Origin: Candidatus Saccharimonadota bacterium | GTDB taxonomy: Bacteria; Patescibacteriota; Saccharimonadia; Saccharimonadales; OFTM59 | Length of the DNA: 58,132 bases | Direction of reading: 5' to 3' | NCBI GenBank assembly: GCA_029260855.1 | Contig: JAJDCK010000002.1 | Span: forward strand, 1-58,132 | Part shown: piece by piece, positions 13,687 through 22,180 of the stretch | Layout: every line of letters starts with the position of its first letter | Position numbering within the stretch: the stretch's first letter is position 1 | Notes under the pieces: generated by a model | Database searches by the model: none | The model's input: the letters and a program-made list of their open reading frames with translations, nothing else | Told to the model about the DNA's origin: nothing | Translations under genes and position numbers: made by a program

Positions 13687-13905
13687 ATGAGTATAGAAGG
13701 ATCCGGGGACCAAGAGCCGACAATCTTACACACGTTAGACAAGGATAGATTAAGGGCTTCTACCAGCGAGATTATACAAAGTGTTCCGCCAGATGATAAT
13801 GATGAATTTGTGAGTGATAAGTTCTTAGATGAGGCTGAAAGACGTTTCATGCGAGTTTTATTTGAGGAGCAGGATCAACATCCTCCTGAACAGCCGGATA
13901 CTTAA
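13687..13905 (+). CDS. Hypothetical small acidic protein
   Basis: 72 aa with TATAAT 9 nt upstream of ATG. Its stop overlaps the recO stop. Confidence 0.5.
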   Translation: MSIEGSGDQEPTILHTLDKDRLRASTSEIIQSVPPDDNDEFVSDKFLDEAERRFMRVLFEEQDQHPPEQPDT

Positions 13906-14594
13906 ACTCTAACGAGGCGGGAGAGCATAGTGTTGGCTAGTTGGAGTGCTTCGCTGGCTAGTTTCTCTGTACCTTGTACCTGTATTAGCTTGTCAGGTTC
14001 GGATGTACCTATGCCCAGGCGCAGAAGTTTTATGTGATTAGCCGTGTACGGACCTTCATCGTGCGCACGGAAGGCCATGTCGTCGTAAGAAAATATGTAA
14101 TTCTTATCCGCCGTCAGTTCGTTCCCTGCCGTATCTTGGCGCAACTTCGGGCTATGACCAGTTATCTTGAGCAGCTGCATAGTAAACCACAGCTCCACCA
14201 ACTCACGACTCAACTTCCTGTCGTTCAGGCCGCCGAGTACCGCTTCAAGCAACGTAAAATATTCTTCTCCGGCGGCATCCTCTGTAACCCTGTTTATGCG
14301 CTTTAGCAGTTCATAACCAAGCATCGTACGGTTTATGTCGCTAACGATATCGCCATAATGGGTAATAAGCCGCGAAGATATAAGCGTGCCGATCTCTTTG
14401 CGACCAGGCAAAAAGGTAATGTCACTGACGCTAAAAAGTTCAATACCGCCAGCCAGCTTGGACTTAACGCGCCGGACGCCTTTGGCCATAAGTCGGATTT
14501 TACCGTAATCCGGCGTAAGTACGGTTATGATCCTATCCGCTTCCTGGAAGCTAGTTCTTGATAAGACTATTCCCTTTGTGACAATCTGCTTCAC
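13902..14594 (-). CDS. recO: DNA repair protein RecO
   Basis: GIVLSRTSFQEADRIITVLTPDYGKI..MAKGVRR.KSKLAG OB-fold start. Confidence 0.95.
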   Translation of the reverse strand: MKQIVTKGIVLSRTSFQEADRIITVLTPDYGKIRLMAKGVRRVKSKLAGGIELFSVSDITFLPGRKEIGTLISSRLITHYGDIVSDINRTMLGYELLKRINRVTEDAAGEEYFTLLEAVLGGLNDRKLSRELVELWFTMQLLKITGHSPKLRQDTAGNELTADKNYIFSYDDMAFRAHDEGPYTANHIKLLRLGIGTSEPDKLIQVQGTEKLASEALQLANTMLSRLVRV

Positions 14595-14971
14595 ACTACA
14601 GCTGGCTCTAAATAGTTAACTACCGACACTAGTTGACGAAGTTTGGTTTGGGGTTTGTATAGAAAACGAGCGACGCCGAGCTGTTCAAACAGCTTAGCGC
14701 CCCCTGTTACAGACTCCTCCGGAACAAGCGACAGCACAATAACAGGTATGTCTTGCCATTCTGGGTACGACCTAAATTCGTACAAAAATTCTATGCCGTT
14801 ATGTGACGGCAATTGTAGTTCTAAAATAACAATGTCGGCCCGTTCGGAATCGGCCTGATGTATAGCCGACTGTGCACTGGGCCGCCAGCTGACATTATGA
14901 CCACTTTGCTCAAGCGCATCTTTATAATTGCCAGCTAGTATTTTGTCGGGTTCAATGAGTAGTATTTTCAT
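14591..14971 (-). CDS. Atypical single-domain response regulator receiver (phospho-Asp replaced by Glu51)
   Basis: Receiver fold KILLIEPD, DIVILELQLP, NGIEFL, PVIVLS, FLYKP. Confidence 0.85.
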   Translation of the reverse strand: MKILLIEPDKILAGNYKDALEQSGHNVSWRPSAQSAIHQADSERADIVILELQLPSHNGIEFLYEFRSYPEWQDIPVIVLSLVPEESVTGGAKLFEQLGVARFLYKPQTKLRQLVSVVNYLEPAVV

Positions 14972-15675
14972 ACAAGAATCAGCTGCGGATTAGGCGCTAA
15001 TGTCACGGCCAGACCGCTTAGTTTACTGTGGTGTGAAACATGCAGCTTGCCCGACATAGCCGCAAATAACGAATCGGCCACAAAAATACCTGCCGAGGAA
15101 CTGTGCCCGAATGTAGGCAAAGATTGCCGCGCGCGGCCGTGTAATAGCTTGGCTCGCTGGAACATATCATTTGTAAGTTCCTTGTGGTTACCATATGTCC
15201 CCGCAACAATTCCCCACCGACTTTTATGTGCGCCTAGAACTAAACGCGGCTTACGTACCCCAGATTCTTGCTGCGCTTCAATGAATGAATACCCAAGCGA
15301 TACCATGGCGGCTTCCAGACTTTTGCGGTGCCCCATGACCGGAGCATACCTGCCACTTAAATGAAGCTCAATGTCACAAGAATATTCCTGGGCTATCTTA
15401 TCAAGACGTTCAGCTGCGCCTTGCAGAACTGACGATATTGAAACAGGCTCAAACTGCAGTTCAGCTTGCGCTTGGGATAGCTGGCGGCTTAATAAGTAGC
15501 TGTCTATCAGATGCAGAGCCATATCAGCCACACTCTCAATGTGCTCATACCGGACTTCTTTGCCCATCTTGGCCAGCTCAATGTGTTGGGATATGTGCAT
15601 AAGCGGCAGCTTAAGCTGTTCGGCGAGCGCCAACAGTAGCTGCTCACTATCCCTGTACTGATCAGACGTTGTCAT
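14968..15675 (-). CDS. Degenerate cytoplasmic histidine-kinase-like protein
   Basis: HisKA-like LAEQLKLPL (H-box His replaced by Glu19), EPVSI linker, eroded N/G1/G2 boxes (SSSAGIFVADSL). Confidence 0.7.
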   Translation of the reverse strand: MTTSDQYRDSEQLLLALAEQLKLPLMHISQHIELAKMGKEVRYEHIESVADMALHLIDSYLLSRQLSQAQAELQFEPVSISSVLQGAAERLDKIAQEYSCDIELHLSGRYAPVMGHRKSLEAAMVSLGYSFIEAQQESGVRKPRLVLGAHKSRWGIVAGTYGNHKELTNDMFQRAKLLHGRARQSLPTFGHSSSAGIFVADSLFAAMSGKLHVSHHSKLSGLAVTLAPNPQLILV

Positions 15676-15765
15676 ACTCGCCTGTTACCCTCAAGTTATA
15701 GCTTCAGTATAGCACTGCTTAGCCATACCGAAACTCCTAACGCCTATATAGTAGCGCCAAGATAA

Positions 15766-16496: not shown

Positions 16497-16988
16497 TTAT
16501 TTGTACTGATACAGGAAAACACCGTGGCGCACCTTTACTGGTTTCTTTCCGGGGACCTTAAATGCGATGCTGGTCAGCTTAATAGAACGCTCGCTATATT
16601 GTTGTATAATTTTTTTATCCAGTTTTTTCATATAACGATCAAGTAAAAAGACGAATATGCCGTCAGCCGTTGGCCAATCTTTGACCCAGTAGTCGCCCCA
16701 TATTATTTTAATATTCTTTCTGTACTTCCAGGTACGCAGCCTAGCTACTAAAACGAGTAAGGGGTTAAGTTCATAGCCTATAACTTTACTGCCGCGCTTT
16801 GCAGCCTGCTGCACTACACGGCCATCACCACACCCCAGCTCCAATAACACCTGACCGGGCTTGAGGCCTAGCATGTCTAGCGCAACATCTGTTTGCTTCT
16901 TGAGTGTTGGCAGATACGGTGCGCCCCGAAAGACCACAAACCCAAAAACCAATACCAGTAGACCTGCGGGCACTAAGAATAGGCTCAT
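16497..16988 (-). CDS. SAM-dependent methyltransferase with N-terminal membrane helix
   Basis: GAPYLPT, LLELGCGDGR motif I, GYELNP. Confidence 0.88.
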   Translation of the reverse strand: MSLFLVPAGLLVLVFGFVVFRGAPYLPTLKKQTDVALDMLGLKPGQVLLELGCGDGRVVQQAAKRGSKVIGYELNPLLVLVARLRTWKYRKNIKIIWGDYWVKDWPTADGIFVFLLDRYMKKLDKKIIQQYSERSIKLTSIAFKVPGKKPVKVRHGVFLYQYK

Positions 16989-17191
16989 TGAGACGGTTGA
17001 GTGAAATCTTTTTTTATTTTTTGAATTTTGTTGTCTGCTAATTTCAAGTATGCTTCAAGCTCTTTCAGGGCCCGCATACCGCGCTCGTAATTGGCTACAG
17101 CCGTATCAATATCACCGTCAGAAGCTTGTAGCTGGTCTAATATCTTGTCAAGCTCTGTTTTGAGTTTTGTGTAGTTGGCTTGTTGTTTCAT
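16985..17191 (-). CDS. xseB: Exodeoxyribonuclease VII small subunit
   Basis: ELDKILDQLQ...YERGM...L..A..KI, directly downstream of xseA. Confidence 0.9.
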   Translation of the reverse strand: MKQQANYTKLKTELDKILDQLQASDGDIDTAVANYERGMRALKELEAYLKLADNKIQKIKKDFTQPSQ

Positions 17192-17195
17192 GGGC

Positions 17196-18314
17196 TTATT
17201 TTATCTTAACACTACTAATTTGCGCTATTGATTTAGCATCTTGCAGCTCAATATCTATGATCATATCCTTTTTCAGCTGAGCCCCCGATCGTATGAGCTT
17301 GCCTCCCTGCCTTAATATAGCGTAGCCACGTGTTAGCGCTGATGCGGGGTTGAACGCAGCAAGCAGATGTTTTTTAAGGTCTAATCGGGTAGATATAGCG
17401 TCCAGCTGGCGAGTCATGGTGTCATTTAGGAGGCTTGTGTAATCTGTACGTTCCCGGCGTTTTTCACTTAGCAACTCCTCTACTGTTCGTGTCATAACAG
17501 CTTGGGTCTGTGGTAAACGCTCAATAATCTCTGCCTTGTCTGGTACGAGCATCTCGGCCGCATTGCTGGGCGTGCTGGCGCGCAAGTCAGCGGCCAGCTC
17601 AGCTAGGGTAACGTCCACCTCGTGACCGATTGCTGCCAGAGTCGGAATACGGCTGCCGGCAACCGCTCGCGTAACCTGCTCCGTACTAAAGGCCCCGAGA
17701 TCTTCTGCGCTACCACCGCCACGTATAATCACCAACACATCAACTGGCTCGGCGTGGCTATTAAAATACTCGATCGCCCGCACAATCTGCCCAGGTGCTG
17801 GCTCCCCTTGCACCTGCACGTCAGCCAACACGACCTCAATTCCACCCCAACGCGTGTTTATAATTTTTACAAAGTCTCCGTATGCAGCAGACTCTCCTGA
17901 TGTAATAAGACCGACCCGCTGGGGAGGAAATGGCAATAGACGCTTGCGACCAGCGTCAAACAAGCCTTCGGCAACAAGCTTGCTTTCCAGCAAGGTTGCC
18001 GCGCGCCTAAGTGAGCCGTCTCCCACTGGCCGCATAGATTGCACACCAACACTAAAACCATATTGCGGATGCAGCCTAGGAACCCCTTTGACCTGCACCA
18101 TTAGTCCGTCTTCTAGCGGTCCTGGCAGTTGGTAAACTGTGCCGAAGAATTTTACGCTAGCGTACTCATCCTTCAGGTCAAAATACACCCACTTGCTCTT
18201 GCTAACACGAAGGTTCGCTAGCTCGCCCACAATAGACACGCCCGGATACGCAAACTCAAATGTCTGGTTTAGAGAAGCGACAAAATCCGCCGGGGAAAAA
18301 ACAACCTCTTGCAT
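17196..18314 (-). CDS. xseA: Exodeoxyribonuclease VII large subunit
   Basis: GELAN...YFDLKD, VGLITS, VQVQGE.A, IIRGGGSAEDL.F, AIGHEVD.TLA...AD.RASTPS.AAE. Confidence 0.96.
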   Translation of the reverse strand: MQEVVFSPADFVASLNQTFEFAYPGVSIVGELANLRVSKSKWVYFDLKDEYASVKFFGTVYQLPGPLEDGLMVQVKGVPRLHPQYGFSVGVQSMRPVGDGSLRRAATLLESKLVAEGLFDAGRKRLLPFPPQRVGLITSGESAAYGDFVKIINTRWGGIEVVLADVQVQGEPAPGQIVRAIEYFNSHAEPVDVLVIIRGGGSAEDLGAFSTEQVTRAVAGSRIPTLAAIGHEVDVTLAELAADLRASTPSNAAEMLVPDKAEIIERLPQTQAVMTRTVEELLSEKRRERTDYTSLLNDTMTRQLDAISTRLDLKKHLLAAFNPASALTRGYAILRQGGKLIRSGAQLKKDMIIDIELQDAKSIAQISSVKIK

Positions 18315-21749: not shown

Positions 21750-22180
21750 CTAGGCTACGTTCAGATGCTGTTTGATTTTGTCTACTACGTCCGCAATCAC
21801 AACTTGTGATTTTACTAGGTAATCGTCAACGCCTAGTGAACTCGCTCGTTCGCGGTCGGCTTCTTGGCTCAGTGCGGTAAGCATGATTACTTTGATATTG
21901 GCCGTCTCTGGAGTGTTACGTATTATATCAAGCACATCAAACCCGCTGACCTTAGGCATCATGACATCCAGGAGTATCAAATCGGGCTTGAATTCCAGGG
22001 CAGCAGCCAGGGCGTCTTCACCATTGGGTACTCGGCGAACTACAAAGTTTTCGGCCTGTAGGCGTATTGTATAAACACTGGCCAAGCCATTATCGTCCTC
22101 AACTAATAGAATTTTCTTTGGTTGCGGTTGGGGTTCTCTGAAGGCTTAACTTGATGTTTGTCGTTATTCATCATGCTCAT
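21750..22180 (-). pseudogene. Single-domain response regulator split by an apparent 1-nt frameshift (or sequence error)
   Basis: The ATG 22180 frame stops at 22103. The -1 frame carries KKILLVEDD...LILLDVMMP...MLTAL...YLVK but has TAA at 22148-22146 and no ATG before beta1. Confidence 0.65.

Follow-up and report, generated by a model that had tools for sequence, protein, structure and literature searches.

The window analysed here is a 58,132-nt stretch, contig JAJDCK010000002.1 of assembly GCA_029260855.1 from a Candidatus Saccharimonadota bacterium, and all coordinates refer to it. On its minus strand three genes follow one another with 4-nt overlaps: the gene of a kinase-like protein runs into that of a stand-alone receiver through ATGA (14968-14971), and the receiver stop codon is joined to the recO start codon in GTGA (14591-14594). 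A preliminary description of this DNA had read the first two genes as a phosphorylation-dead two-component pair, and its statements about the sequence itself hold throughout (the open reading frames (ORFs), the 4-nt overlaps, the erosion of motifs in both proteins and the position of an extended -10 element, TGCTATACT). We find that the two proteins fold as a histidine kinase core and a receiver, that both are under strong purifying selection and that the residues replacing the catalytic ones are themselves invariant. As far as alignments can tell, every residue for autophosphorylation, phosphotransfer, phosphatase activity and Mg2+ binding has been lost. Below, "canonical" refers to syntenic orthologues that keep these residues and "dead" to those that do not.

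The kinase-like protein and the stand-alone receiver

The AlphaFold2 (AF2) model of the kinase-like protein (pLDDT 85, pTM 0.84) shows a pair of long helices and then an alpha/beta domain, and corresponds to a soluble protein with a DHp domain (approximately residues 2-68) and a CA domain (approximately residues 76-226), lacking both a transmembrane (TM) segment and a sensor. The best Foldseek matches in the PDB were HK853 (E 1e-9, TM-score 0.68) and DivL, which gave the highest TM-score (0.72-0.74), together with CusS and RetS; there were 252 PDB matches at E<=0.001, and all among the matches listed are histidine kinase cores. Establishing this identity needed a family profile, the structure model and the syntenic orthologues, since searches with the single sequence were uninformative. 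No Pfam family scored above its cut-off, HisKA (PF00512) and HATPase_c (PF02518) included, and single-sequence searches returned sub-threshold matches only (NCBIfam PhoR/RstB/CreC at E ~0.01; the hybrid kinase 6qrj in the PDB at E 0.33). A large protein collection holds 362 homologues; those that carry a name are all listed as 'hypothetical protein' of Candidatus Saccharibacteria, and none has a Pfam domain. The assignment made here corrects that annotation.

Glu19 occupies the position of the phospho-accepting histidine in three independent alignments, namely with the CpxA H-box profile, with the canonical syntenic orthologues and by hhalign. A profile of 63 homologues puts the invariant Glu19 onto the CpxA H-box His, and hhalign of the dead against the canonical class aligned 222 columns at 99.8% probability, again with Glu19 on His. 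The H-box reads A-E-Q-L-K-L-P-L in the window versus A-H-E-L-K-x-P-L in the canonical orthologues. The phosphatase motif E/D-x-x-T/N (HisKA definition from PMC12963549) is lost as well, with Gln20 and Leu23 where orthologues have Glu and Thr/Ala/Ser. In the N-box, S-L-G-Y-S-F-I-E stands against the orthologue N-L-x-D-N-A-x-K, so that Ser130 takes the place of the Asn (N in 22/26 canonical sequences). The G1 box is A-G-T-Y-G-N-H instead of V-R-D-x-G-P-G, with Gly162 for Asp and with His164 and Glu166 for two Gly; the G2 box is S-A-G-I-F instead of S-G-L-G-L, and one Gly (G196) is retained in 116/120 homologues.

These losses extend to the wider family. Among the top 147 database representatives the His site holds E in 117, Q in 10, D in 9 and H in 3, the N-box Asn is present in 3/147 and the G1 Asp in 1/147. 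The most conserved stretch is DHp helix 1, LALAEQLKxPLLQIARxAEL, and the ATP-lid segment RRAxxLYGRARQPLP is strongly conserved though the Asn and Asp ligands are gone. By these alignments the kinase-like protein is a predicted pseudo-histidine kinase: it has the histidine kinase fold, descends from a true kinase and has been kept under selection. Beyond the last CA strand lies a C-terminal tail, P-x-x-Q-L-x-L-V (residues 227-235; 14968-14994), a motif absent from ordinary histidine kinases. Its Q231 never varies, being found in 76/76 syntenic orthologues of either class and in 147/147 database representatives, and the tail looks like a docking peptide for a partner.

The receiver is recognised directly by Pfam (PF00072, 54.8 bits against a cut-off of 30.2). 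Its AF2 model (pLDDT 90) has the (beta-alpha)5 fold, and the top Foldseek match is RR468 (TM-score 0.83-0.86). Alignment with KdpE places Glu51 on the acceptor Asp52 and Glu7-Pro8-Asp9 on Glu-Asp-Glu, so that the metal-binding Asp is replaced by Pro8. Ser81, at the Thr/Ser position of beta4, and Lys106, at the Lys position of beta5, are retained, and the family carries the signature HNGIEFLYEFRSYxEWQ. With a PF00072 match but, by alignment, without residues that phosphotransfer requires, the protein is a pseudo-receiver (PsR/ALR) as defined in PMC12632262. According to the same review, the Asp of pseudo-receivers is most often replaced by Glu, which can mimic phosphorylation. Glu51 together with the retained Ser/Thr81 and Lys106 fits a phosphomimetic reading, without proving it.

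Selection on both genes was assessed with the closest relatives (87-91% amino acid identity). The ratio of non-synonymous to synonymous substitution rates (dN/dS), calculated by NG86 and YN00, was 0.04-0.10 for the kinase-like gene, 0.07-0.17 for the receiver and ~0.05 for recO, values that are approximate since dS (~1-2) is at or near saturation for all pairs. Between close relatives the kinase-like protein is the most conserved of four neighbours, at 87-91% amino acid identity versus 77-83%. In the best database homologues E19, K22, P24 and Q231 of the kinase-like protein and E7, P8, E51, H57 and P107 of the receiver are each invariant (120/120), K106 of the receiver is found in 119/120 and S/T81 in 60/60. 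Conservation with dN/dS below 1 had been put forward as a check, and these values agree with it; the relaxed selection that had been named as the mark of decay did not appear. An exhaustive profile search of 1.84 billion representatives returned 269 clusters (50% identity) at E<=1e-30, rising to no more than 766 at E<=0.001, which indicates that the family has left general kinase sequence space.

Two states of one system in the class Saccharimonadia

The kinase-like gene was matched in 56/61 genomes (one per family, same order) with 0 internal stops, and no match was obtained in the remaining 5/61 relatives; retention on this scale shows that the observation is not due to chance. Altogether 76 loci were compared, 30 + 26 from the 61-genome search and 20 from the largest family of the order and the other orders of the class. 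A class-wide mixed profile matched every genome, ordinary kinases included, and was used only to choose short-frame candidates that were then checked for synteny. The order kinase-receiver-recO is present in 76/76 loci across the class Saccharimonadia, and the membrane-protein gene lies upstream in 73/76.

Two states of the pair were found. The canonical class comprises the order's largest family, several deep families and the other orders. Its kinases carry AAHELK(A/T)PL, DNA(L/I)xY, RDxGP and SSGLGLYI, and its receivers EDD, Asp, Ser/Thr and Lys. The dead class, to which the window and most other families belong, has mostly Glu at the His site, Glu at the Asp site and E-P-D as the acidic pair. 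The Pfam scores follow the same division: canonical syntenic orthologues exceed the cut-offs (HisKA 38-51 bits, HATPase_c 53-86 bits), intermediates match weakly and dead-clade members do not match. A scan of named genomes showed that the canonical largest family is that of the oral Saccharibacteria (oral taxon 488, Nanosynbacter spp., HOT-352, Minimicrobia vallesae), with His in 73/73 loci and EDD plus Asp in 63/73.

Polarity was read from a tree of RecO and the membrane protein, from which the pair's own genes were excluded and which was rooted on other orders. The canonical state is basal, and all E/E/EPD loci fall into one clade (97% SH-aLRT, 46/76 rows) that includes the window. Smaller separate losses occur outside it, in L059/L062, L068 and L064. 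The preliminary description had suggested checking whether both substitutions are conserved, and over the 76 loci they go together: 46 have neither His nor Asp, 26 have both, 4 have Asp without His and 0 have His without Asp. The empty class suggests that the kinase site was lost first or together with the receiver site, and never after it. On this tree and table the dead state arose within one large clade from an ancestral canonical state, and the loss is coordinated between kinase and receiver. Retention of His and Asp by homologues had been named beforehand as a finding that would overturn the phosphorylation-dead reading. Many homologues do retain them; with the canonical state ancestral and the dead state derived, this is no refutation. 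The absence of a sensor and TM segment, correctly noted and confirmed by the AF2 model, had been listed alongside the eroded motifs; it is ancestral and forms no part of the degeneration.

A few loci depart from this pattern. Two related families look like intermediate states: in L059 (1567-2484) and L062 (1792-2514) the kinase His is lost (Leu, Asn) together with the N-box Asn, G1/G2-like motifs and weak Pfam matches are kept, and the receivers retain the acceptor Asp. Inside the dead clade, L024 and L050 have a receiver with Asp. In L007 a 581-nt insertion (between 916 and 1498) separates the kinase-like and receiver genes, which elsewhere overlap or nearly so.

The genome of the window (0.79 Mb) contains no other kinase frame of ~240 aa and hence no canonical paralogue. 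An origin of the dead pair by duplication, with a canonical copy elsewhere, was rejected for this reason and because the position is orthologous.

Organisation of the locus and linkage to recO

The coordinates of the genes, of the putative expression signals and of the two replaced codons are collected in Table 1.

Table 1. Features of the locus in the window (58,132 nt)
Feature	Position	Strand	Basis or remark
xseA	17196-18314	-	window gene order
xseB	16985-17191	-	window gene order
S-adenosylmethionine (SAM) methyltransferase	16497-16988	-	window gene order
Single-pass membrane protein, 233 aa	15766-16467	-	conserved upstream neighbour of kinase-like gene
Extended -10 element TGCTATACT	15706..15714	-	upstream of pseudo-kinase gene; read directly
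GAGGGTAA, Shine-Dalgarno-like	15685..15692	-	10-17 nt before ATG at 15675
Pseudo-histidine kinase, 235 aa (708 nt)	14968-15675	-	ORF, AF2 fold and hhalign
Glu19 codon GAA (phospho-His position)	15619..15621	-	alignments
Stand-alone pseudo-receiver, 126 aa (381 nt)	14591-14971	-	PF00072 and AF2 fold
Glu51 codon GAA (phospho-Asp position)	14819..14821	-	alignments
recO, 230 aa (693 nt), GTG start	13902-14594	-	TIGR00613, RecO_N, RecO_C
PnuC-like ORF, 80 aa	13355-13597	-	followed by glycyl-tRNA synthetase (glyS)

A 90-nt gap separates the membrane-protein gene from the kinase-like ORF. In an intergenic alignment of four sequences, the window and the relatives L002, L003 and L071, TGCTATACT is invariant despite diverged intergenic DNA and saturated synonymous sites, and GAGGGTAA is nearly so. 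The conservation of the two elements suggests that the kinase-like gene, the receiver gene and recO are transcribed together, as a unit that does not include the membrane-protein gene. The element pointed out earlier is an extended -10, with no -35 match to accompany it; a scan for two-hexamer promoters did not list it. The identity of recO is clear from TIGR00613 (95.9 bits against a cut-off of 48.7), RecO_N (71.7 bits) and RecO_C (30.5 bits).

The receiver-recO junction is a 4-nt overlap in 49/75 loci and another kind of overlap in ~16 more, and the kinase-receiver junction is a 4-nt or 1-nt overlap in 32/76. The linkage to recO, whose conservation had been put forward as a check, is found in all 76 loci. 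The overlaps are present alike in canonical and dead pairs, so the coupling to recO is not tied to the loss of phosphorylation. By this comparison the coupling is ancestral, and it is probably real as co-expression.

The block xseA-xseB-methyltransferase-membrane protein-kinase-receiver-recO-glyS is syntenic between the window and Southlakia epibionticum, and because the whole block is shared, the adjacency of kinase, receiver and recO carries little information. In S. epibionticum ML1 the block comprises xseA (SEML1_0242), xseB (0243), a methyltransferase (0244), a hypothetical protein of 663 nt (0245), a histidine kinase of 708 nt (0246), a response regulator of 366 nt (0247), RecO of 675 nt (0248) and GlyRS (0249) (PMC10633639, Table S1, Wang et al. 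2023). The kinase, receiver and recO genes thus measure 708/366/675 nt there versus 708/381/693 nt in the window. SEML1_0245 is annotated with a Mog1p/PsbP-like fold and 0246 with HisKA and HATPase_c (PMC10633639, Table S2); the main text of that paper makes no mention of these genes.

Transposon insertion sequencing (Tn-seq) at three time points, T0-T2, called each gene of S. epibionticum essential (ES), growth-defective (GD) or non-essential (NE) (PMC10633639). The calls were ES/ES/ES for SEML1_0245, GD/GD/ES for the kinase 0246, NE/GD/ES for the regulator 0247, NE/NE/GD for RecO and NE/NE/NE for the methyltransferase, and RecO tolerated 25-36 insertions at the three time points. The phenotype of the pair is not accounted for by polarity on glyS, for the gene placed between the regulator and GlyRS is that of RecO, which itself accepts insertions. 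We infer that the ancestral system of Southlakia serves a function that matters for epibiotic growth and is not that of RecO. Adjacency apart, nothing supports the suggested link to RecFOR repair: synteny covers the entire neighbourhood, canonical pairs are coupled to recO equally and the Tn-seq phenotype of RecO differs.

The upstream membrane protein has a cytoplasmic N-terminal tail that is P/Q-rich and variable, one TM segment and a conserved extracytoplasmic domain. It is as conserved as RecO across the class, with the motifs YPKTWS, DGYFHP, FALR and PLRDKTL, and its syntenic counterpart SEML1_0245 is essential and flagged as Patescibacteria-enriched. Signalling from this protein to the kinase through the cytoplasmic tail was considered and is doubtful, the tail being variable in both length and sequence.

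Downstream of recO, the PnuC-like ORF of 80 aa matches only the first third of PF04973 (nicotinamide-riboside transporter, 33 bits) and shares 4 nt with the start of glyS. The close relative L071 has a counterpart of equal length (80 aa) and Pfam match, which suggests a conserved mini-protein and not a fragment. Within the receiver gene, a perfect 7-bp hairpin, TGCCGTTATGTGACGGCA, at 14794-14811 has a terminator-like score on both strands; it is probably due to chance, the regional count being near the shuffle expectation.

A probable phosphorylation-independent pair and related systems

We favour a reading in which the pair is probably the in-place orthologue of a class-wide mini two-component system, consisting of a soluble DHp-CA kinase and a stand-alone receiver, with an extended -10 promoter of its own and translational coupling to recO, that remains functional and now works independently of phosphorylation. 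It supports this reading that the best match of the kinase-like protein, HK853, and that of the receiver, RR468, are the two partners of one solved kinase-regulator complex. Whether, more specifically, cognate kinase and regulator were converted together into pseudo-enzymes while the module kept a selected, probably essential function is a question on which we see the arguments as evenly balanced. In the clade of the window the kinase has lost its acceptor His (to Glu19) along with the phosphatase motif and the Asn and Asp that bind ATP, and the receiver its acceptor Asp (to Glu51) and its metal-binding Asp (to Pro8). The further steps could go either way. Glu51, held by Ser81 and Lys106, might fix the receiver in one conformation, probably an active-like one; the receiver might still bind the pseudo-kinase at the conserved face of DHp helix 1, and likewise the target of the ancestral regulator; and control might have moved from phosphotransfer to abundance or partner binding.

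Several points weigh against a phosphorylation-independent pair of this kind. Within the dead clade the His site drifts, though rarely, to N, A, Y, L, R, S and D, which suggests that a carboxylate on the kinase is not strictly required. If Glu19 and Glu51 faced each other they would repel unless bridged, and the idea of Glu as a phosphomimic has failed for some pseudo-receivers (PMC12632262). The near-saturated dS makes the dN/dS values approximate. The tree was built by a quick search from two neighbouring genes and is not a genome phylogeny. An independent-pairs test of the joint loss of His and Asp was underpowered (1 starred pair), for which reason the two-by-two table and the tree are reported instead, with no P value. 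The Tn-seq genes were taken as orthologues on the basis of eight-gene synteny, gene sizes and Pfam content; sequence similarity of the window pair was shown to canonical orthologues, including those of the Nanosynbacter type.

Among the alternatives, we regard as unlikely a role in which the pseudo-kinase heterodimerises with or titrates one of the genome's five canonical kinases, in the manner of RetS and GacS, or in which the pseudo-receiver docks another kinase, in the manner of DivK with DivL or PleC, so that cognate pairing would be secondary. Potential partners exist (the same genome has 9 receiver and 6 HATPase_c matches), the pseudo-kinases DivL and RetS are among the closest structures and conservation within the protein is highest in the DHp helices. 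However, the coordinated change and the retained coupling point to the pair itself as the functional unit, and the module is kept in several genera with only 1-3 other kinase matches per genome.

Less probable still is a module directed at RecO, in which the dead pair would bind RecO or tune RecFOR-dependent repair or the cell cycle. Translational coupling would then be explained by function, and the frequent 4-nt receiver-recO overlap, the constant gene order and the one putative shared promoter are all in keeping with it. The same coupling in canonical pairs and the synteny of the entire eight-gene block argue against this, as does the tolerance of RecO, and not of the kinase or regulator, to transposon insertion. 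We give an equally low probability to a covalent signal that persists in altered form, whether by Ser/Thr/Tyr phosphorylation of the receiver as in plant PRRs, by remodelled nucleotide binding in the CA domain or by an acyl-phosphate on Glu. Plant PRRs with Glu at the Asp site are indeed phosphorylated elsewhere (PMC12632262), and the ATP-lid and G196 are conserved, but the near-absence of the N-box Asn and G1 Asp among the 147 representatives, the tolerance of N, A, L, Y and R at the His site within the clade and the lack of a Ser/Thr kinase linked to the locus all speak against such chemistry. Decay of the pair into non-functional remnants heading for loss, to which the missing catalytic residues, the undetected Pfam histidine kinase families and the 5/61 relatives without a match might point, is strongly disfavoured and for practical purposes excluded by dN/dS values comparable with that of recO, by the kinase-like protein being the most conserved of its neighbours, by the invariant replacement residues, by frames intact in 46 families and by confident AF2 models.

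The closest known relatives of a phosphorylation-independent pair each share a part of its features. HK853-RR468 of Thermotoga maritima (PDB 3dge, 5uht, 6rfv) also combines DHp and CA domains with a single-domain receiver that has no output domain; both of its proteins are catalytically active (His260, Asp53) and a membrane sensor part belongs to HK853, whereas in the window pair both sites are Glu and the ATP ligands are missing, as is any TM or sensor region. The canonical orthologues (SEML1_0246/0247, Nanosynbacter spp.) share with the window the soluble kinase, the stand-alone receiver, the recO coupling and the upstream membrane protein, as well as the motifs RSYxxW, QPxxxxxxSSG and a C-terminal QLxL. 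They keep HELKxPL, DNAxxY, DxGxG, GLGL, EDD, Asp, Ser/Thr and Lys; of these the window pair retains only Ser and Lys.

Pseudo-histidine kinases are known (DivL, RetS, RocA and PsmA), the concept being that of Collins and Childers as cited in PMC12632262. DivL of Caulobacter (PMC4211667), whose structure (4q20) gave the highest TM-score noted above, is likewise a protein of histidine kinase fold without the acceptor His (Tyr instead), and it works by binding a single-domain receiver, DivK, whose state it reads. DivK, however, is truly phosphorylatable and is served by other kinases, and DivL has PAS domains and a membrane anchor, whereas in the window the receiver has lost its site as well and nothing implies a further kinase. 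PsmA of Streptomyces venezuelae (PMC12963549) acts by protein-protein interaction and, like the window protein, has Glu for the H-box His, a residue that varies among its orthologues, and has lost the ATP and phosphatase motifs. It differs in being a large hybrid whose receiver keeps its Asp, with no separate partner changed alongside it and no ancestor system known to be essential.

Glu at the Asp site is also seen in other pseudo-receivers, among them plant PRR/TOC1, Rim15p and the bacterial ALRs ChxR, HP1043 and FrzS (PMC12632262). Rim15p of fungi, in which Ascomycota have Glu and other groups a true receiver, offers a clade-specific switch like that of the window (PMC12632262). In contrast to the window receiver, which is paired and coupled with a dead cognate kinase, the known examples are orphans or parts of larger proteins, and the second position of the acidic pair, Pro in the window, is usually Asn in pseudo-receivers. 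About 2% of receivers and 0.9% of HisKA domains have no phosphorylation site (PMC12632262). In the literature that could be searched we found no description of two separate cognate partners that were converted together, stayed coupled as a unit and derived from a system essential in relatives.

If a phosphorylation-independent pair is the right reading, oral Saccharibacteria would use phosphotransfer in a system whose orthologue in a large environmental clade dispenses with it, a natural experiment showing two-component output carried by binding alone. The 2025 review notes that switching of bacterial pseudo-receivers 'remains a mystery' (PMC12632262), and the control of cell cycle and differentiation in Patescibacteria is an open question (PMC11665869). 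Both halves of the pair changed on the same tree branch, and cultivated relatives that are naturally transformable still carry the unchanged version. S. epibionticum, which is transformable and in which the canonical genes are essential or growth-defective by Tn-seq, and Nanosynbacter, which also has the unchanged version, provide an experimental handle. The questions opened are whether dead alleles can replace the canonical pair, what the receiver binds and what phosphotransfer added. The comparison also flags a previously undiscussed essential module of Patescibacteria, composed of the PsbP-like membrane protein, the mini-kinase and the receiver.

Stand-alone receivers are not restricted to this locus in the genome of the window. 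Most of its 9 receiver matches sit in frames too short for an output domain. Three of them (L035-L037) are arranged in tandem as stand-alone receivers in frames of 125-130 aa at contig C3:4141-5272, near a large kinase at the contig end, and another stand-alone receiver lies within the window at 21807-22112 on the minus strand.

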